A DNA stretch of 64,000 bases. Origin: Escherichia phage T5_ev219. The position numbers were made by a program, and so were the translations under genes. The notes under the pieces were generated by a model. It was not told the DNA's origin, did not search any database, and saw nothing but the letters and a program-made list of their open reading frames with translations. Numbering within the stretch: the first letter of the stretch is position 1; every line of letters begins with the position of its first letter. The stretch lies in the sequence record NC_134263.1, one strand, 5' to 3'. Positions 4,276-54,508 of this stretch are shown piece by piece.

Positions 4276-4437
4276 GTTGTTTCTCCAGTTTCATTTTTAA
4301 TAGTTTACAGATGAAATCAACGTCTTCATCTGTGCCTAAGTCTCTATCCTCAAGGGTCGCCTTGAAGTTTTTCGTCAATTCCATGAGGATGATTTCCCTA
4401 GAACGACGTGTTGGCGGAGGTGGATGTCTATACATCT
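4273..4437 (-). CDS. hypothetical small protein (about 55 aa, below ORF-track cutoff)
   Basis: Hand-translated MYRHPPPPTRRSREIILMELTKNF...; stop overlaps next start. Confidence 0.3.
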
Positions 4438-4450
4438 TATTTCCTTAATT

Positions 4451-4527
4451 TGGTAGGGGTGGTGGGATTCGAACCCACAAAACCTGAATTTTAAGTCCAG
4501 TACCTATGCCAATTCGATTACACCCCC
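4451..4527 (-). tRNA. tRNA with anticodon TAA (Leu-type anticodon, short variable arm), tentative
   Basis: Acceptor GGGGGTG/CACCCCT, anticodon stem CTGGA/TTCAG with loop CTTAAAA, T-arm GTGGG-TTCGAAT-CCCAC, encoded CCA; D-arm poorly paired. Confidence 0.5.
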
Positions 4528-4628
4528 GTGTAATCAGTTTATTAGTTGATACATATTATAGCCTAAAGAAAACCCTACTACTAATCCTACTAACCAACCA
4601 ATATAATAATCTTTTAATTTCACGGGTG

Positions 4629-4814
4629 TCAACCTCGTTCAATATCTAGAGAAATACCACAGGTAGGATTAATGCCTGTGCCTTTGCACGTCGGACAAAC
4701 CCAGATATTACAGAATGTATCCCCTGCTTCTGCATCAGAACTTTCTCCAACTCCTAGACAGTCAGGACAGGCACATTCTTCTAGCTCTTGCTTGAGTTCT
4801 TGAAACTTAGACAT
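4629..4814 (-). CDS. small Cys-rich protein (61 aa, CxxC pairs, zinc-finger-like)
   Basis: CACPDC...CPTCKGTG...C motif pattern. Confidence 0.5.
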   Translation of the reverse strand: MSKFQELKQELEECACPDCLGVGESSDAEAGDTFCNIWVCPTCKGTGINPTCGISLDIERG

Positions 4815-4823
4815 ATAGTTTCC

Positions 4824-5012
4824 TTATTCAATTACTTTTGAGGCTTCAAGGGAGTCGATATAGTGTACGTTTTCTACCATAATCATATAATCTGCCACTT
4901 TATCCATAGCCTGAGCTTCAGAGGTAGCCCTGGCTAACCTATATCCTTTTTTATATTCATCCGGGTATTCCCTATCTGGAATAAACACAACATAAACTAG
5001 GTATAGTTCCAC
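4824..5012 (-). CDS. hypothetical protein (62 aa)
   Basis: ORF directly downstream of tRNA-Met on the transcribed strand. Confidence 0.4.
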   Translation of the reverse strand: MELYLVYVVFIPDREYPDEYKKGYRLARATSEAQAMDKVADYMIMVENVHYIDSLEASKVIE

Positions 5013-5033
5013 TTGTAACCCCTCTAATTAAAC

Positions 5034-5111
5034 TGGTGGCTCCCCGAGGATTCGAACCTACGTACCTTCCGGTTATGAGCCGGGTGCTCATACCATATGA
5101 GCTTGAGAACC
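5034..5111 (-). tRNA. tRNA-Met (anticodon CAT), tentative
   Basis: Acceptor GGTTCTC/GGGAGCC with G-U pairs, anticodon loop CTCATAA flanked by CCGG stems, T-loop TTCGAAT, encoded CCA; T-stem imperfect. Confidence 0.55.
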
Positions 5112-5117
5112 AGAATT

Positions 5118-5207
5118 TGGCGGAAGAAGTGGGAATCGAACCCACAAGGCTATATTTCAAACCGACAGATTAGCAATCTGCTGCAATACCGTTATGCTAT
5201 TCTTCCG
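5118..5207 (-). tRNA. tRNA-Ser (anticodon GCT), long variable arm
   Basis: Acceptor GGAAGAA/TTCTTCC, anticodon stem CAGA/TCTG with loop TTGCTAA, long variable arm, T-arm GTGGG-TTCGATT-CCCAC, encoded CCA. Confidence 0.8.
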
Positions 5208-5221
5208 AATTTATAAGATAT

Positions 5222-5250
5222 ATTATATTAGAAATTTAGCTTCATAGCAA
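5222..5250 (-). promoter_or_regulatory. sigma70-type early promoter driving tRNA-Ser/Met cluster
   Basis: ATTATA 5222-5227, TAGCAA 5245-5250, 17-bp spacer. Confidence 0.55.
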
Positions 5251-5310
5251 GAAAATTTTTCAAGTTTTCGGTAGACATCTCATCCACATCTACAGGAGAA
5301 ACAAATCCAT

Positions 5311-5745
5311 TTAATTGTCTAGCAAATTTTCACCAGCAGGATCATTATCCCCAACAGCTACCAATTTAAAAGGTAATAATTTCAGTTGCTTTAATAACGC
5401 TTTTCCTGGAGAAGAACCCAACATTGCTAGGGCTGGATAACCAGCGTTATGTAACGCAACTGCCTTAAATACAGATTCAGCGATCAATACTACTTTTTCA
5501 TCTCCATTGAGAGTTTCTAGTCCCCATACACACTGGGTAGTAGAATAAGTAAAATATTTAGCTTCAAAGGGACACTTACCATGACCTTTTGGAGCAGAAG
5601 GATTATAAGTTTGATAGCCCCTCAACATCCCAGAGAAGTCATACAACGGGACTGTTAGCCATCCTTCCGGACTTAACCAGCAATGATATTTTTCTGTATC
5701 AAATCCTCTAGATAAGAGGTGCTGTGTTAGCTCATCAACATTCAT
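5311..5745 (-). CDS. stand-alone TOPRIM-domain protein
   Basis: IAESVF (Toprim Glu) and VAVGDNDPAG (DxD) motifs; start moved to MNVDELT because ORF-track start lies upstream of the promoter at 5776-5804; RBS GAGAGAGGAA. Confidence 0.5.
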   Translation of the reverse strand: MNVDELTQHLLSRGFDTEKYHCWLSPEGWLTVPLYDFSGMLRGYQTYNPSAPKGHGKCPFEAKYFTYSTTQCVWGLETLNGDEKVVLIAESVFKAVALHNAGYPALAMLGSSPGKALLKQLKLLPFKLVAVGDNDPAGENLLDN

Positions 5746-5775
5746 ATCTGGTTCCTCTCTCAAATTTATAGATAT

Positions 5776-5804
5776 ATTATACAGAGAATTTAGCATTCAA
5801 GCAA
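5776..5804 (-). promoter_or_regulatory. sigma70-type early promoter
   Basis: ATTATA 5776-5781, AAGCAA 5799-5804, 17-bp spacer, conserved downstream ATAAATTTGAGAGAGG leader. Confidence 0.6.
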
Positions 5805-5920
5805 TCAAATTTTTTAACTTTTTAGAGGAAAATCATAGGGCACTTAAGGGCAGCAGATAAGTGGTGAGGACCAAAATTTGTGACCCCACTAAAAATCCGG
5901 GGGCAATTTTTAAAGACCCT

Positions 5921-5949
5921 TTGACATTTTCGCCGGGGTAGTGTAAAGT
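5921..5949 (+). promoter_or_regulatory. plus-strand sigma70 promoter (TTGACATTTTCGCCG class)
   Basis: TTGACA 5921-5926, 17-bp spacer, TAAAGT -10; the 15-mer TTGACATTTTCGCCG recurs at 34561. Confidence 0.5.
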
Positions 5950-6011
5950 ATATGTTATGGATGAGTGATCAAAGAGACACACATTTTCTATATACTAGGA
6001 GGTGTCAAAAA

Positions 6012-6992
6012 ATGACAGAAGAAGTAGCTAAGAGTCCTGAGACCGTCGCTAGCGTAGCAGCAGAACTGCATCGTCACGAGGAATCAGATAAGAAAAAGTG
6101 GGAGAAGGTCAGAGCCTACGAAGAAGAACATCGTGAACACGATGATAAAGATGAAGAAGATGACGATGATGTACGTTGTCATAAATATGGAAAATATAAA
6201 ATGCAAGAACCAGTAAACGTATTTACTAACGGCTTCCCTGGCATGGGTGCATTCCCAGCTAACGCAAGTGCTTTCGGTGGAGAAGGTATGGGTCTATTCG
6301 GAGCTATCCTAATCGGTGCTCTATTAACCGGCGGATTTGGTGGTTTTGGTGGTTTTGGTCGTGGTGCTGGCGTTGCCGCTGAAGGAACCGCTGTGGACGC
6401 GATCCTTTCTAACCAGGATACTGCAAGTATTCTAGCTGCAATCAATACTACTCGTACAGAAGCTAACCAGGGCACTGGGGCTGTTCTAAGTGCAGTAAAC
6501 GGTGTGGGAGCTGCTCAAGCTGCTAGCACTCAGCAAGTTCTGACTACTATCTACGGTACAGGTGCTAATCTGTCAAACCAGATCTGTGCTGAAACTCGTA
6601 ACGTTATTCAGGGTCAGTTCGATCTTTCTCGTCAGATGGATCAATCTTTCGCTGCTAACCAGATAGCACGTGCTCAAGATAAGTTTGACTCTGCTCAGAT
6701 TGCTTTCCAGCAGTCTATTCAGACCAACAACCAGTTTGCCGCTGTTCAGGCTCAGATGTGCGCTAACCAGAACGCTATCGAACGTCAGCTTGCTGAATGT
6801 TGCTGTGAGCTTCAGACTGCGATCGCTGGTGTAACTACTGCACGTATCCAGGACGAACTGAATGAATGCCGTCTGCGCGAAGCAATCGCTGCAGGTAGCG
6901 GTGCAAATGGTCAGGTAATCAACCAAATCGCTGTAAGTCTTGGTGCTATCACTCAGACTCTGGCTGGTCTGCAGGCTAAACTGCCGGCTTAA
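6012..6992 (+). CDS. hypothetical protein: acidic N-terminus, Gly-rich hydrophobic segment, Q/A/N-rich C-terminal half
   Basis: AGGAGG RBS before ATG 6012; DDKDEEDDDD tract, GMGLFGAILIGALLTGGFGGFGGFG segment; host-like optimised codons (CGT, CTG, GGT). Confidence 0.6.
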   Translation: MTEEVAKSPETVASVAAELHRHEESDKKKWEKVRAYEEEHREHDDKDEEDDDDVRCHKYGKYKMQEPVNVFTNGFPGMGAFPANASAFGGEGMGLFGAILIGALLTGGFGGFGGFGRGAGVAAEGTAVDAILSNQDTASILAAINTTRTEANQGTGAVLSAVNGVGAAQAASTQQVLTTIYGTGANLSNQICAETRNVIQGQFDLSRQMDQSFAANQIARAQDKFDSAQIAFQQSIQTNNQFAAVQAQMCANQNAIERQLAECCCELQTAIAGVTTARIQDELNECRLREAIAAGSGANGQVINQIAVSLGAITQTLAGLQAKLPA

Positions 6993-49606: not shown

Positions 49607-49656
49607 AAAATAAATAATAAACCCCAGTGGATTTTGTCCACTGGGGTTTTCTTTTA
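49607..49656. terminator. bidirectional rho-independent terminator between convergent early and late blocks
   Basis: Hairpin ACCCCAGTGG-attttgt-CCACTGGGGT flanked by A-run upstream and T-run downstream. Confidence 0.7.
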
Positions 49657-51375
49657 TTGTGATACTAATTGTACCTTTAATTGCTCAAGCTCTTTCTCTA
49701 GATCTTCAATCCGTTTAATAAGATCTTGCACAACATGCATAGTGTCAAGAAGCATTGGAGTTGTATCTAATTCCTTTTGCTCCTGCTCTATTCCGTCATC
49801 ATTATAAAATTTTCTAGTTTTTACATAAAGTGGTTCTATAGTCTCTACTTGCTGAGCAATAACCCCACGTCGAACACGAGATTTTTCATCGTTATTATAT
49901 ACAAAGGATTGGAATTCTAATCCTTTTAATACCTCGATGGACTTAGTTGCGTCTATAGCCTTAATATCATGCTTTAAGCGAGAATCAGATACAGCATTTA
50001 ATTGCAAAGTATAGGTTGCTGAAGCACCAGGCCACCAAGAATAAAAATAAATACTATTATTATTCGGCTGAATTTTTAAACGCACACCAAATTTATTATC
50101 ATCATCTCCCGCTACCTGCCAACAAGAATCTGCAAATGAGCCTAAGTCATTATGAATTAATCCAAAATGTGCAGATGTCTTATACCCTGCGGAAGAAGAC
50201 TGGGAACCGCTCAATATACTATTAAAGTTAAATGTACTACCTATATTGACCTCGTTCTGAGAAAGAGTACCTTGTACACAGCCAGTCTGAGACCACGCCA
50301 TGCCAGTAACTAATCTAGCTTTAAAACGATCCGTTACAAAATCCCCATTATCTACAAGCTGGGCGGAATTCGATTTACCGGTAGATTTATTGTCTATTAG
50401 TAGTTCAGTAGAGTAGGTGCCACCAATAGTAGCTTTAGCTCGTAGTGTACTTACAGCCTCACTACTAGTACCTACTTTATACTCAGATAGTACACTCCCG
50501 CCATAAACAGTAGTACCAGTATTAGGTTTGACAGCATCACCACTAATAACACTCCACGATGTATTCGCAGCAACGAACCCGCCTGATGCGCGGATTACCC
50601 AGACGCCGACGAAGTTGCGCCCCATAATTTCATCAGCGCATCTTCCGTATACCGCACTACTTCCCGCAGCATTTAACGAAAGGCGTTGCGTACCTAAGTT
50701 TGTGCCAGGCTGCGCACCCACAACGGCATCTCCTTGACTCGAATAGCTAAATGCGCCATTAGCGCCGTAAGCTATAATGCCACCTGCATCACCCGTGATG
50801 TTGGGAGCGCCTGAATCGAACACTAGACCATCAGCATTTGAGTTTGCCGTGCCACTTCCTGCACCGTCGCCACGCCCATAAAGAGCGGCTAATGAACCGA
50901 CTTGAACGCCGTTACGGTCTGGAACGCGGAATGTAGTTGATCCGTCACCCTTAGAATACTTGCCGCGCTGAAATTTATCAGCCAGCCATTTAGAATCATC
51001 TATAGCACCCACCATTTGAGCGTAAGCCCAAAGCTCCGGCCAGTCAGCCCTGTTAAGAAGCTGCCCATCAGAAACTACCTCATAAGGTTGAATATACGCA
51101 CGGCTATCGCGAAGGTGGAAATCACCTACACCGTAATTCATAACACCATTCATAGTGGGACCGACTGTACCGGTGTTAATCTTATTCTCTACCCAACGTT
51201 TAGTTGCGGCATCATAGTCCCCAACAGGATCTCCCGCAAGAGGGGTGGACCCAATAGGACGCACATTTAACCATGCTGCTGCACGGTCTGCTAAGTCACT
51301 TAAATTATTATTCTTGTTAAGTGACTCATTTTTAAGTTTTGTAATATCCGTAGGAATTACTGTTTTAGTTACCAT
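49654..51375 (-). CDS. distal tail fibre protein with phage tail-collar domain and C-terminal S74-type intramolecular chaperone
   Basis: Tail-collar-like WPELWAYAQMVGAIDD...GSTTFRVPDRNG; C-terminal SDSRLKHDIKAIDATKSIEVLKGLEFQSFVYNND...GVIAQQV chaperone signature. Confidence 0.7.
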   Translation of the reverse strand: MVTKTVIPTDITKLKNESLNKNNNLSDLADRAAAWLNVRPIGSTPLAGDPVGDYDAATKRWVENKINTGTVGPTMNGVMNYGVGDFHLRDSRAYIQPYEVVSDGQLLNRADWPELWAYAQMVGAIDDSKWLADKFQRGKYSKGDGSTTFRVPDRNGVQVGSLAALYGRGDGAGSGTANSNADGLVFDSGAPNITGDAGGIIAYGANGAFSYSSQGDAVVGAQPGTNLGTQRLSLNAAGSSAVYGRCADEIMGRNFVGVWVIRASGGFVAANTSWSVISGDAVKPNTGTTVYGGSVLSEYKVGTSSEAVSTLRAKATIGGTYSTELLIDNKSTGKSNSAQLVDNGDFVTDRFKARLVTGMAWSQTGCVQGTLSQNEVNIGSTFNFNSILSGSQSSSAGYKTSAHFGLIHNDLGSFADSCWQVAGDDDNKFGVRLKIQPNNNSIYFYSWWPGASATYTLQLNAVSDSRLKHDIKAIDATKSIEVLKGLEFQSFVYNNDEKSRVRRGVIAQQVETIEPLYVKTRKFYNDDGIEQEQKELDTTPMLLDTMHVVQDLIKRIEDLEKELEQLKVQLVSQ

Positions 51376-51384
51376 TATAAAACC

Positions 51385-51663
51385 TTACGCCCACTCTCTA
51401 AGAGGCTGTTCCAACTGAACTATAAAAGGCTCAAAGTATTCATAAGTAAAGGATTCACCAAGAATCCTTACATTAACATAGTATCCTTCATTACGGGTGT
51501 ATCTAGGTTCCTCATCGCCTGGTGCGGAGATTTCAGTATAAGTATAGCCAATCTCGTCCAGGATAAACATATCTCGTAACTCTTCATTTTCTTGCCAGTT
51601 TATTCCAACTAAGAAATTTTTATATTCGTTCTTGTCTTTAAATTTTAATATTATATCTTTCAT
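51385..51663 (-). CDS. hypothetical protein (92 aa) inside fibre locus
   Basis: ORF between the two fibre genes. Confidence 0.45.
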   Translation of the reverse strand: MKDIILKFKDKNEYKNFLVGINWQENEELRDMFILDEIGYTYTEISAPGDEEPRYTRNEGYYVNVRILGESFTYEYFEPFIVQLEQPLREWA

Positions 51664-54086
51664 ACAGACTCCCTCATTTGACGATCCGTTAATTCTTTAT
51701 GCCAGATTCTAAAATTTCTGACATGCCCGAAAAGATGTTTCCCACCATCTGCACTTATGCCGCCGATACGAAGATTTTTAGAAAAACCAGCTTTCCATGT
51801 TGTTTTCACAGGCGTACCGAACACAGCGTTTGTTACGCATCTTAATTCTGAGCTTTTGTTGCAAACAAAACCCGTCACCATTTTCCCGCTTGTTTTTGTT
51901 GATACTGGCGTAAATGACTGACTGACCCCCAACTGAGAATAAGGCAGCGGCTCTACTGTATCGCTTGATGGAACCCTGAAAGCAACTAATAACTGGTCTT
52001 CTGGTGCATTTGCTACATGTACTATCCTTGGTGCTGAGTTTGGGGCTATATCCCAATTTCTATTTACCTCAACAAGTAGACTTAACGGTATAGAGGATGG
52101 TTGATTGCAATCAGTTGGTATTAGGACCATGTCACTAGCTCTTGTGGCGGGCGTACTGCTTGTAATTATGAACGATGAAGCGCATGACCCTTTTTCAATT
52201 TGCGGAGTAGTCACCTCAACAAAACTAGAATCATCATAAGTGGCATCGGCTTTTTGCACAATCTGAATTCCACCGTTAATATATGCTGAGTTATCTGTAA
52301 CTTTATAAACAACCTCTATAGCAACCCATTCACCATCCTGAACAACATTTTTCACAGTGATGTTAGACGCATCCTGCCCGGACGTGAATGTAGCTAGCGT
52401 GTCGCTGTCAATAAAAAGAACAGCAACAGTAGCAGGTGTTTCTCCTTTGCTAAATCTAGCAACAAATCTTAGATTATGTCCTCTTGCCCTAAACGATAGT
52501 GTAACTGCGTCATCTTTAACTACAGATATATTGTTTTGCGAGTTACCTGATATAATCCCATATGTACCAGTAGAGCCAGAGTAAACACCAGGGCCGAACG
52601 TTGCATATTTAAAACCACGATCATCGGTTTTTGTTTCACTTTTGCTTAGCCCTGAATTCGAGTTCCATAATTCTGGCGCGTTTGAATTCGCAAAATAGTT
52701 AGTTCTCTGACCTTCAATAAGCAGACCTTCTTTTTCAAAACGTGGCTCATTAATTTCTGCAATGGTAAGAGCGCCGGACTTATTGATATAGGTCGCAGTT
52801 GATGCACGAGTAAAGCTAACAATCTTGTCGCTAGGCAGTGTTATTTCCTCATCACCAACTGTTATTTTTTTATAGCCTGGTGCAAAGCCGGTGATCATAT
52901 CTAGAGAATCGTTAAACGGTATCCATACATCTGGAAGAGGTTGAATGTCGGGGGTAGAATTAGCAGCAGCTTCTGATCTATCAGCCTCAGTTTTTGAACG
53001 ATCGGCTTCAGTTTTAGCAGTATTAGCACTATTAGCAGCAGCAGTAGCCTGTTCCCCCGCTTCTGCTGCAGAATTAGCAGCATTAGTTGCAGAAGTTGCA
53101 GCTTGGTTTTTTAAAGTTGTTGTCTCAGATACCGCGCTATTCTTAATACCTTGTGTATCTGTTTTTAGTTGCTCAACATCCGCTTTTAAAGCTGTTGTCT
53201 CTGTTACAGCACTATTTTTAATGGCCTGGGTATCAGATTTTAACTGTTCTACATCCGCTTTTAAAGCTGTTGTCTCTGTTACAGCACTATTTTTAATGGC
53301 TTGGGTATCAGATTTTAACTGTTCAACATCTGATTTAAGTACTTGAATAGCAGCTACAGATTGGCTGGCAGAAGTTGCAGATCCCGCAGCATTAGTTTCA
53401 CTAGCCTTAGCTTTTGTTTCCGAGGTTTTTGCATTGGTTTCAGAGATTTTTGCCGCAGATGCCGATGCAGCAGCTTGCTCAGAGAATATTTCCGCCTCAT
53501 TCCTAAAACCGTTAGAAGCAGCAGCTGATTGAGCTGCATTAGTCTCACTGACCTTTGCATTATCCTCACTAAGTTTTGCCGCTGCAGTCGAAGCAGCAGC
53601 ATTAGTTTCACTAGCCTTTGCCTTATCCTCACTAGCTTTTGCATTAGTTTCGCTAGTTTTAGCTTTTGTTTCACTAGCTTTTGCATTAGTTTCGCTAGTT
53701 TTAGCTTTTGTTTCACTAGACTTAGCATTAGTTTCAGAGGTTTTTGCAGCTGCAGCTGATTCTGCAGATTTAGTAGCAGAAGTGGCAGACTGAGTAGCAG
53801 AGGTAGCAGATTGAGTAGCAGAAGCTTCAGAAGCTCCAGCAGAAATAGCAGCTTCCTGTTCAGAGTTCTTAGCATTAAGCTCTGAAGTCTTAGCTGCTAT
53901 TTCAGAATCTTTTGCAGCCGCAGCAGATTTAGCAGCAGCCTCTATAGAAGATACTAACTCATTAGCAGTAATAGAGCTAATAGAATTTCCAAAAGTTACT
54001 GTGTATCTAGGAAATTTACTAGCAGTAGCTTTAGTATCATCAATATTTAATATTTGTTGTACAATAATCTTAGTAGTTATTGCCAT
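51660..54086 (-). CDS. L-shaped tail fibre protein, proximal part (808 aa, A/S/T/E-rich repeats)
   Basis: Long low-complexity repeat region (SETNAKASETKAK..., ALKADVEQLKSDTQAIKNSAVTETT x3), position next to pb4/pb3-like genes. Confidence 0.65.
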   Translation of the reverse strand: MAITTKIIVQQILNIDDTKATASKFPRYTVTFGNSISSITANELVSSIEAAAKSAAAAKDSEIAAKTSELNAKNSEQEAAISAGASEASATQSATSATQSATSATKSAESAAAAKTSETNAKSSETKAKTSETNAKASETKAKTSETNAKASEDKAKASETNAAASTAAAKLSEDNAKVSETNAAQSAAASNGFRNEAEIFSEQAAASASAAKISETNAKTSETKAKASETNAAGSATSASQSVAAIQVLKSDVEQLKSDTQAIKNSAVTETTALKADVEQLKSDTQAIKNSAVTETTALKADVEQLKTDTQGIKNSAVSETTTLKNQAATSATNAANSAAEAGEQATAAANSANTAKTEADRSKTEADRSEAAANSTPDIQPLPDVWIPFNDSLDMITGFAPGYKKITVGDEEITLPSDKIVSFTRASTATYINKSGALTIAEINEPRFEKEGLLIEGQRTNYFANSNAPELWNSNSGLSKSETKTDDRGFKYATFGPGVYSGSTGTYGIISGNSQNNISVVKDDAVTLSFRARGHNLRFVARFSKGETPATVAVLFIDSDTLATFTSGQDASNITVKNVVQDGEWVAIEVVYKVTDNSAYINGGIQIVQKADATYDDSSFVEVTTPQIEKGSCASSFIITSSTPATRASDMVLIPTDCNQPSSIPLSLLVEVNRNWDIAPNSAPRIVHVANAPEDQLLVAFRVPSSDTVEPLPYSQLGVSQSFTPVSTKTSGKMVTGFVCNKSSELRCVTNAVFGTPVKTTWKAGFSKNLRIGGISADGGKHLFGHVRNFRIWHKELTDRQMRESV
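53110..53330. repeat. in-frame tandem repeat, period 69 bp, about 3 copies
   Basis: Unit CATCCGCTTTTAAAGCTGTTGTCTCTGTTACAGCACTATTTTTAATGGC(C/T)TGGGTATCAGATTTTAACTGTT repeated at 53183, 53252 with a diverged copy upstream. Confidence 0.8.
53590..53750. repeat. in-frame tandem repeat, period 42 bp (21-bp sub-unit)
   Basis: GCATTAGTTTCGCTAGTTTTAGCTTTTGTTTCACTAGCTTTT repeated at 53641 and 53683 with degenerate flanking copies. Confidence 0.75.
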
Positions 54087-54508
54087 TATCTAGTTACCCC
54101 ATCACTGATAAATACTTTACCCTCCATTATACGAAAAGAGCTAATAGCGGATCCTATGACATCTCGTGTCATAATTATATCATAATATCCTGCAAAACGT
54201 TGGCGAGGATTATATTTATCTCTCTCTTTGGTAGCTTTTTCACCAATATTATCTACCGCCTCTACAGGTAAACTTATAGCTATAGCACCTTGAGCAGCAT
54301 CAATAATTTTAGTAGTAAAAGATGCCAAAGTTTCCGCGTTCTCATCAAGCCCGGCCTTTATAGTACCCCTTAGGGAATACCCTGTTAAGTTAACAGGGGT
54401 ATTTGTAGGTGGGTAAGTACTATCATCAACATCTAAGAATTGCATCATTAGACCATAAGGTACTTTCTCATCTATCACTAGGTCTATAACTCTATTTTCA
54501 GTACTCAT
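54086..54508 (-). CDS. tail/collar protein (T5 p132-like by size and position)
   Basis: 140-aa ORF between fibre and pb4-like gene; assignment by synteny and length only. Confidence 0.45.

Follow-up and report, generated by a model that had tools for sequence, protein, structure and literature searches.

Positions 49654–54086 of a 64,000 nucleotide (nt) stretch of DNA from Escherichia phage T5_ev219 (sequence record NC_134263.1; the whole stretch is termed the window) contain three genes on the minus strand. These very probably (approximately 85%) represent a lateral (L-shaped) tail fibre operon of the IrisVonRoten/Bas32 type, in which three translationally coupled genes encode a non-covalently jointed fibre. 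The open reading frame (ORF) listing gives the three genes as follows:

51660–54086, minus strand: proximal fibre gene, 808 amino acids (aa)
51385–51663, minus strand: small gene, 92 aa
49654–51375, minus strand: distal fibre gene, 573 aa

In phage IrisVonRoten, homologues of all three proteins are encoded with the same gene boundaries. The 808 aa protein is 61% identical to IrisVonRoten Gp22 (and 91% identical to the homologue in phage JLBYU40), the 92 aa protein is 78% identical to its orthologue, and the 573 aa protein is 85.6% identical overall to Gp24. The layout has already been described in relatives. It is a recurrent, published allele class, and the locus in T5_ev219 is an ordinary example of it with a reshuffled tip.

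Organization and distribution of the three-gene locus

An earlier note on this DNA had listed ORFs of 808, 92 and 573 aa, and their coordinates, lengths and minus strand orientation are borne out. The note had called the 808 aa gene repeat-rich, and this gene does have three blocks of tandem repeats: 75 nt x 3.0 (53109–53330), 21 nt x 6.6 (53598–53736) and 21 nt x 2.9 (53764–53824). It had also given T5 pb1 as one gene of roughly 1400 aa and set the locus apart from such a gene. Comparison with the T5 and DT57C loci agrees with both statements: the slot between the LtfC collar gene and dut has a single ltf gene of 1396 aa in T5 and two genes in DT57C, ltfA (1076 aa) and ltfB (788 aa), as against three here. 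The picture of a distinct locus holds in that it differs from T5, but the locus is not peculiar to T5_ev219. The split is genuine and the same layout is present in the T5-like phages JLBYU40 (790/92/589 aa), IrisVonRoten (796/92/574 aa), mar004NP2, L6jm and FFH1, on an IMG/VR contig that is 95–97% identical, and in others. Two-gene ltf loci have been known in T5-like phages since 2016 (PMC4728585), and the three-gene layout of mar004NP2 was remarked on in 2019 (PMC6563131).

The gene order, a 4 nt ATGA overlap and a 9 nt spacer are alike in at least nine independent genomes inspected. At the junctions of 14 loci inspected, the small gene overlaps the proximal stop codon, mostly by ATGA, or abuts it, and the distal start is 9–12 nt (mostly 9 nt) past the small-gene stop at all of them except in rV5. 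The small-gene stop sits inside a conserved ribosome-binding site, TAAGG(A). In T5_ev219 the distal gene keeps to the reading frame of the small gene, with TAA and 6 nt between them (51376–51390). This shared frame looks incidental, since the usual spacer of 9 nt gives way to one of 10–12 nt in some loci.

It is extremely improbable that the three ORFs stem from faulty assembly or sequencing, or from one long ltf gene that recently decayed into a pseudogene. The same gene boundaries are found in independently sequenced genomes of several phage families, and the small gene is read in another frame than the proximal gene, with the conserved ATGA overlap between them. The ratio of nonsynonymous to synonymous substitution rates (dN/dS) of the 92 aa gene is 0.10–0.19 relative to T5-like relatives, which indicates purifying selection. 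The ORFs go far beyond chance, since all three proteins recur in full length across many phages, and each belongs to its own full-length family. Nothing was found in favour of an artefact, though Salmonella phage VSe12 does have a genuinely broken distal gene. The comparative and selection evidence rules this explanation out.

The broken distal gene of VSe12 (locus L010, positions 4280–6018) is in pieces of 277 aa and 80 aa and its canonical start is missing. This represents either a degenerate locus or sequencing errors.

Homologues of the 92 aa gene are present in 162 phage records. At least 80% of the 808 aa protein is held by about 48 phage records, compared with approximately 540 that match the replication region, which is 94–97% identical to many Tequintavirus genomes. 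Judged by this distribution, the three-gene locus is a minority but recurrent allele class among T5-like phages. T5-like coliphage-type fibre loci are also found in records OR848352 (Listeria phage LM 4-14-1) and MG065692 (Campylobacter phage C13), and an rV5-like coliphage-type fibre locus in MG065655 (Campylobacter phage C2). These three records are probably mislabelled or contaminant sequences.

Two other features flank the fibre genes:

54086–54508, minus strand: LtfC-like collar protein, 140 aa (Pfam PF23926 LtfC, E 8.4e-15)
49619–49649, both strands: bidirectional intrinsic terminator between the convergent dut and the fibre operon, with a 13–14 bp stem and a T-run on each strand

The LtfC-like protein, which is 84% identical to DT57C LtfC, is the anchor of the lateral fibres to the tail tip. 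Its gene and the straight-fibre gene pb4 are upstream of the fibre genes, and a bidirectional terminator is annotated at the matching place in T5. The order pb4, LtfC, fibre genes, terminator, dut is syntenic with T5 and DT57C. The T5_ev219 genome (110,393 bp; accession LR597655.1, PMC9961651) carries the fibre-locus proteins, with 100% identity for all three, as VUF55664.1, VUF55658.1 and VUF55652.1, the last being the distal protein; two of the three genes are labelled 'hypothetical' in GenBank. A literature search found no published analysis of this fibre locus.

Structure of the proximal and distal fibre proteins

The 808 aa protein is a member of the tail protein family phrog_1419 (E 7.6e-207). 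Its orthologue in mar004NP2 was seen in virions by mass spectrometry (MS) and is annotated as 'confirmed structural protein by MS' (PMC6563131). Four segments are distinguished, all on the minus strand:

53967–54086, minus strand: aa 1–40, putative N-terminal anchor into the LtfC ring, by homology to DT57C LtfA
52947–53966, minus strand: aa 41–380, Ala/Ser/Thr/Lys/Glu-rich repeat shaft with 21 nt (7 aa) and 75 nt (25 aa) tandem repeats
52707–52946, minus strand: aa 381–460, highly conserved junction segment (QPLPDVWIPFNDSLDMI...PRFEKEGLLIEGQRTN) with many invariant alignment columns
51663–52706, minus strand: aa 461–808, LamG/pentraxin-like lectin-fold module, from the predicted structure and NF048003

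Residues 1–212 match DT57C LtfA 1–226 (PDB 8hqz_d, E 6.4e-35). By BLASTP, aa 1–227 are 55% identical to T5 Ltf 1–205, with a range of 53–55% over T5 Ltf and LtfA. The cryo-electron microscopy (cryo-EM) structure of DT57C shows the N-terminal part of LtfA threading the LtfC ring and a three-helix coiled coil from T40 onward (PMC10713586), and it is from this structure that an anchor role is proposed for aa 1–40. Residues 41–380 probably form a trimeric coiled coil; aa 269–372 match T7 gp17 165–267 (E 4e-4). The proximal protein of the closest IMG/VR relative (L008) is 783 aa, exactly one 25 aa unit less than the 808 aa protein with its three units. A similar change, the gain of a 19 aa repeat, is reported in the fibre mutant DT571/2-ABF. 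Two long ORFs at the repeat region, 52945–53346 (plus strand, 133 aa) and 53354–53875 (minus strand, other frame, 173 aa), have low-complexity translations and are repeat by-products, not genes.

Residues 225–808 are 38–46% identical (BLASTP) to proximal fibres from JenP2 (Nonagvirus), 1H12 (lambdoid) and KarlBarth (Dhillonvirus). An AlphaFold2 model of aa 368–808 is confident at approximately aa 468–627 and moderate at approximately aa 667–797, and NCBIfam NF048003, 'phage head spike fiber domain', matches aa 456–650 above its cut-off. In the predicted structure the proximal C-terminus has a LamG/lectin-like beta-sandwich fold. IrisVonRoten Gp22 has a protruding 'galectin-like domain' that has been suggested as a further receptor-binding domain (PMC11990801), in agreement with the LamG-like domain of the 808 aa protein, which may be a receptor binder in its own right. 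Docking is another conceivable role, since a loop of Pa193 gp46 holds the trimeric tail fibre of that phage (PMC11456595).

The segments of the distal protein are:

51286–51375, minus strand: aa 1–30, putative N-terminal docking peptide (MVTKTVIPTDITKLK...), common to the JenP2 and KarlBarth distal fibres
50596–50895, minus strand: aa 161–260, hypervariable insert by identity windows, with a GC content of 0.54
49990–50595, minus strand: aa 261–462, conserved core and second (T5-like) receptor-binding region
49654–49989, minus strand: aa 463–573 and stop, S74 intramolecular chaperone (PF13884)

Residues 30–567 match DT57C LtfA 511–1073 (46%) and LtfB 206–785 (43%) by BLASTP, and the match of the protein to PDB 8hqz_d has an E value of 6.8e-137. 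The homology with LtfA starts at a NNLSDLADRAAAWLNVRPIGSTPLAGDP linker. Only the first 30 or so residues (MVTKTxIPxDITxLK) recur in the distal fibres of JenP2 and KarlBarth, which are unrelated in all other parts. The motif M-x-T-x-T-x-IP-x-DI-x-x-LK is present in 13 of the loci examined, which represent T5-like, Nonagvirus, Dhillonvirus, Drexlerviridae, lambdoid and P2-like phages. The S74 domain named by the earlier note stands, as Peptidase_S74 (PF13884) matches aa 463–515 (E 3.3e-12, 46.9 bits vs a cut-off of 22). SDSRLK at positions 463–468 aligns with SDARLK at positions 1264–1269 of T5 Ltf, so that S463/K468 correspond to the S1264/K1269 dyad. Self-cleavage is predicted before S463.

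The insert at aa 161–260 departs from an otherwise highly conserved protein. Comparison with IrisVonRoten, JLBYU40 and L008 in 20 aa windows shows 10–50% identity at approximately aa 161–260, but 90–100% identity over aa 1–120 and 261–573. The insert is 94% identical to that of the T5-like phages AZ21/AZ23, whose fibres are otherwise approximately 62% identical, and it is 70% identical to a Wifcevirus fibre. Sequence comparison thus marks an AZ21/AZ23-type insert in an otherwise Iris-type distal fibre as the feature specific to T5_ev219. It is likely the specificity determinant of the first receptor-binding domain. The GC content is 0.50–0.54 over distal aa 31–260 (50596–51285; 0.54 in the insert) vs 0.39 for the window. 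It is 0.35–0.39 in the remainder of the gene, where the S74 chaperone and the second binding region lie. The high GC content of aa 31–260 suggests import from a GC-richer background.

In 'T-shaped' fibres, two binding domains have been exchanged independently across sipho-, myo- and podoviruses (PMC11990801). An exact-sequence look-up of contigs with the 573 aa protein gave no entry. The protein is a singleton at 90% clustering and distal-fibre homologues are also present in Gordonclarkvirinae and Wifcevirus, which fits this published pattern of exchange. IrisVonRoten infects K-12 with a restored O16 O-antigen (PMC8594841, PMC11990801). Since its distal fibre is so similar to the one here, targeting of O-antigen by T5_ev219 is plausible by analogy. 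O16 specificity cannot be assumed for T5_ev219, as the insert differs from that of IrisVonRoten.

The 92 aa protein and the proposed fibre joint

The 92 aa protein is a member of phrog_1361, a family of unknown function, and has no Pfam or NCBIfam match. Its AlphaFold2 model displays an alpha/beta core, with a confidence score (pLDDT) of approximately 88 for aa 1–70, followed by an unstructured and almost invariant tail (...QPLREWA). A structure search with the model found no structural analogue.

The small gene is always located behind a LamG-type fibre C-terminus in T5-like, Nonagvirus, Dhillonvirus, Drexlerviridae, lambdoid and P2-like phages. In rV5-like myoviruses it also follows a LamG-type C-terminus, and is then followed by a terminator with no coupled distal gene. 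That the pairing holds even in rV5 points to the proximal C-terminal module as the constant partner of the 92 aa protein. The rV5_ev146 locus (L019, 824–5700) has a 1479 aa tail fibre with the LamG-type C-terminus, a divergent 110 aa homologue of the small protein and an intrinsic terminator. In two lambdoid prophages, 1H12 (L003) and one of E. ruysiae (L017), the proximal fibre and small gene are followed by a 97 aa membrane-like protein and sitABCD cargo with no distal fibre; these may have lost the distal fibre, or their tip may be the LamG module. When species-representative bacterial genomes were scanned for the small gene, the E. ruysiae prophage was the one locus obtained.

An exhaustive profile search with the 92 aa family yielded 69 cluster representatives only. 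The family profile also gave repeated weak matches to PKD-like units of giant PKD/RTX proteins (P0192, P0199, P0209, P0223 and others). This may be a distant kinship or just a shared 'Y-V-N-V-R-I-x-D' motif. With an hhalign probability of 55% and helices in the predicted fold, it is kept as a weak lead and not as a finding. A paper on the cryo-EM structure of phage phi92 (PMC13450770) is silent on the LamG/small-protein module.

By homology to DT57C LtfA, three copies of the 808 aa protein would be held in the LtfC collar ring by their first 40 or so residues. Residues from approximately 40 to 380 would form a repeat-built trimeric helix, the length of which would shift by gain or loss of 25 aa units. 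The protein ends in the conserved junction segment and the LamG/pentraxin-like module, which may bind sugar or serve in docking. The 92 aa protein would be a dedicated partner of this C-terminal module. The distal protein would dock by its conserved N-terminal peptide and carry the variable receptor-binding regions, probably aimed at O-antigen. It would trimerise via the S74 chaperone, whose predicted removal before S463 would leave a mature protein of 462 aa. In the course of evolution, a fibre similar to DT57C LtfA would have exchanged its covalent continuity for a plug-in joint cassette that is common to many unrelated coliphages.

The 92 aa protein is provisionally viewed as a retained component of the joint, i.e., a hinge or cap, a role that has a little less than an even chance but is favoured over that of a transient assembly chaperone. 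In the latter case, a non-structural protein similar to lambda Tfa or T4 gp38/gp57 would fold or trimerise the proximal fibre and be absent from the virion, and the distal fibre would dock directly on the proximal one. Such a role is possible though rather doubtful. The small gene is directly downstream of, and coupled to, a fibre gene that has no intramolecular chaperone, and it accompanies the LamG C-terminus even where there is no canonical distal fibre (1H12, E. ruysiae prophage, rV5). The published model of IrisVonRoten also joins Gp24 to Gp22 without the small protein (PMC11990801). However, the 92 aa protein has no sequence or fold similarity to known tail-fibre chaperone families (Tfa, Caudo_TAP and gp38 types), and the BASEL authors annotate the orthologue as 'tail fiber protein'. 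Furthermore, the small gene, the spacer and the distal N-terminal motif are inherited together in 13 of the loci examined.

A branched fibre of the DT57C LtfA/LtfB type concerns the fibre as a whole. Here the second protein would sit on the flank of the first, at its mid-region, and both would have an independent C-terminal receptor-binding domain and S74 chaperone. T5-like phages with two-gene ltf loci are documented (PMC4728585), a possible second binding module (LamG-like) is present on the proximal protein and the distal protein is homologous to LtfB 206–785. Yet S74 (PF13884) is present on the 573 aa protein only, and a Pfam search did not find it in the proximal protein. There is no homology to LtfA 227–510 by BLASTP, only low-complexity matches that reach residue 311. 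The distal N-terminus is unrelated to LtfB 1–205 (the phiEco32 gp15-like docking end) and matches instead the docking peptide of fibres that follow LamG-terminated proximal fibres. A branched fibre is thus very unlikely; it is rejected in that the defining docking regions and the second S74 are missing.

Several points weigh against a jointed fibre of the IrisVonRoten type as described here. The T5_ev219 fibre is known from its sequence. The T shape and the names RBD1 and RBD2 (for receptor-binding domains) come from a published prediction for a homologue with 85% identity (PMC11990801). The junction segment at aa 381–460 has a pLDDT below 50 in an AlphaFold2 monomer model, which suggests that its folding may require the trimer or a partner. 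Many homologues have a record of PF13385 (Laminin_G_3), but this profile has no match to the 808 aa protein at E values up to 10. The tail-collar domain that the earlier note had placed on the distal protein is a sub-threshold signal: Pfam Collar matches aa 139–156 with E 0.039 and 14.4 bits vs a cut-off of 24, and an equally weak match is present in 18 of 26 homologues. A PDB search with a profile from the aligned distal fibres stopped short of T4 gp12, and of T4 gp37 and T5 pb1 beyond the S74 region. The invariance of the tail of the 92 aa protein may partly be a nucleotide constraint, since the last codons of the small gene (TGG GCN TAA GGA) contain the ribosome-binding site of the distal gene. 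Lastly, the small protein and the distal fibre are not among the eight proteins detected in the mar004NP2 proteome (PMC6563131), which is uninformative on the 92 aa protein because so few proteins were detected.

A wider proposal is tentative. The LamG-type C-terminus and the approximately 90 aa protein, usually with the docking peptide, may represent an uncharacterised universal tail-fibre joint, in which the small protein would be a hinge or cap with a new fold. Unrelated sipho- and myoviruses (T5-like, lambdoid, T1-like, Dhillonvirus, Nonagvirus, P2-like and rV5-like) would use it to plug exchangeable distal fibres onto their own anchors. If true, such a hinge common to many phage families would be moderately interesting and of practical use in fibre engineering, where the conserved joint cassette offers natural cut-and-paste points for swaps of distal fibres between families. 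The cassette also draws attention to one small protein of wide distribution. For annotation, the three T5_ev219 genes can be named as a proximal fibre, a joint-associated small protein and a distal dual-domain receptor-binding fibre. On smooth E. coli, which bears O-antigen, the insert of approximately 100 aa is predicted to be what largely sets the host range, and its exchange independently of the rest of the fibre would be of use for host-range prediction and for the engineering of T5-like therapeutic phages.

Comparison with known tail fibre systems

The long tail fibre of T4 (gp34, gp35, gp36, gp37) has proximal and distal half-fibres that are joined non-covalently, with small hinge proteins. 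No sequence or fold relation to it was detected, and the analogy is functional only.

T5 Ltf (pb1, 1396 aa) is L-shaped and binds polymannose O-antigen. It is similar in locus position, in the LtfC collar, in the N-terminal 205 or so aa (55%), in the C-terminal S74 chaperone with its SD-x-R-L-K motif and in its role as a non-essential primary adhesin. It differs in that it is the product of one gene and not three, and the anchor and S74 are on separate ORFs in T5_ev219. Homology to T5 Ltf is not detectable beyond the N-terminus and the cleavage motif.

The LtfA/LtfB fibres of DT57C and DT571/2 share with the fibre here the LtfC collar, the anchor and start of the coiled coil (LtfA 1–226), the half of LtfA at 511–1073 and the S74 chaperone. 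The stretch at approximately LtfA 526–625 of DT57C is nearly identical to the distal fibre here. Unlike here, the parts in DT57C are in one polypeptide of 1076 aa, and a second fibre, LtfB, is on its middle (PMC4728585; PMC10713586, PDB 8HQZ). The middle of LtfA has a phiEco32 gp14-like stretch at aa 223–471, which is proposed to hold LtfB, and a block of 19 aa repeats at aa 478–542 (PMC4728585). Relative to LtfA, the middle third, i.e., the gp14-like stretch and a part of the 19 aa block, is replaced by the shaft, the C-terminal module, the small gene and the docking peptide. By this replacement a covalent fibre would have become a jointed one, with a joint that is non-covalent and end-on.

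The closest system is IrisVonRoten (Bas32) Gp22/Gp23/Gp24, which has the same genus, locus position and gene order, and proteins of nearly the same sizes. Gp24 is predicted to be a T-shaped dual-RBD fibre on the proximal Gp22 (Humolli et al. 2025, PMC11990801). Identity to Gp24 is 95–100% over aa 1–120 and 261–573, with the S74 chaperone and the second binding region included. The phages differ at distal aa 161–260 or so, inside the putative Gp12-like first binding domain, where identity is 13–50%, and in the repeat content of the shaft.

Cassettes in phages that are not T5-like are found in PhiR49_1*/1H12 (lambdoid), JenP1/JenP2 (Nonagvirus), KarlBarth (Dhillonvirus), XY3 (Drexlerviridae) and P2-like prophages. 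They have the same LamG-type end, ...HLFGH[VI]RNFRIW.K.LTD.Q..E.V, a small gene of 85–99 aa at the proximal stop, a 9–12 nt spacer and the distal N-terminal motif. Their anchors differ according to the type of phage (lambda Stf-type PF08400 or P2 H-type vs T5 Ltf-type here), and their distal fibres are mostly unrelated past the first 30 or so aa. The swapped receptor-binding module proposed by the earlier note is supported as to the exchange itself, given the mosaic distal protein and its hypervariable segment, but not as to an extent limited to the tip, as the whole of the proximal protein from approximately aa 225 onward is a module common with non-T5 phages. The homologies indicate that the fibre is a mosaic: the anchor is of the T5/DT57C type, the shaft, the LamG module and the small gene are common with lambdoid, Dhillonvirus, Nonagvirus, Drexlerviridae and P2-like phages, and the distal protein is similar to the C-terminal half of DT57C LtfA.

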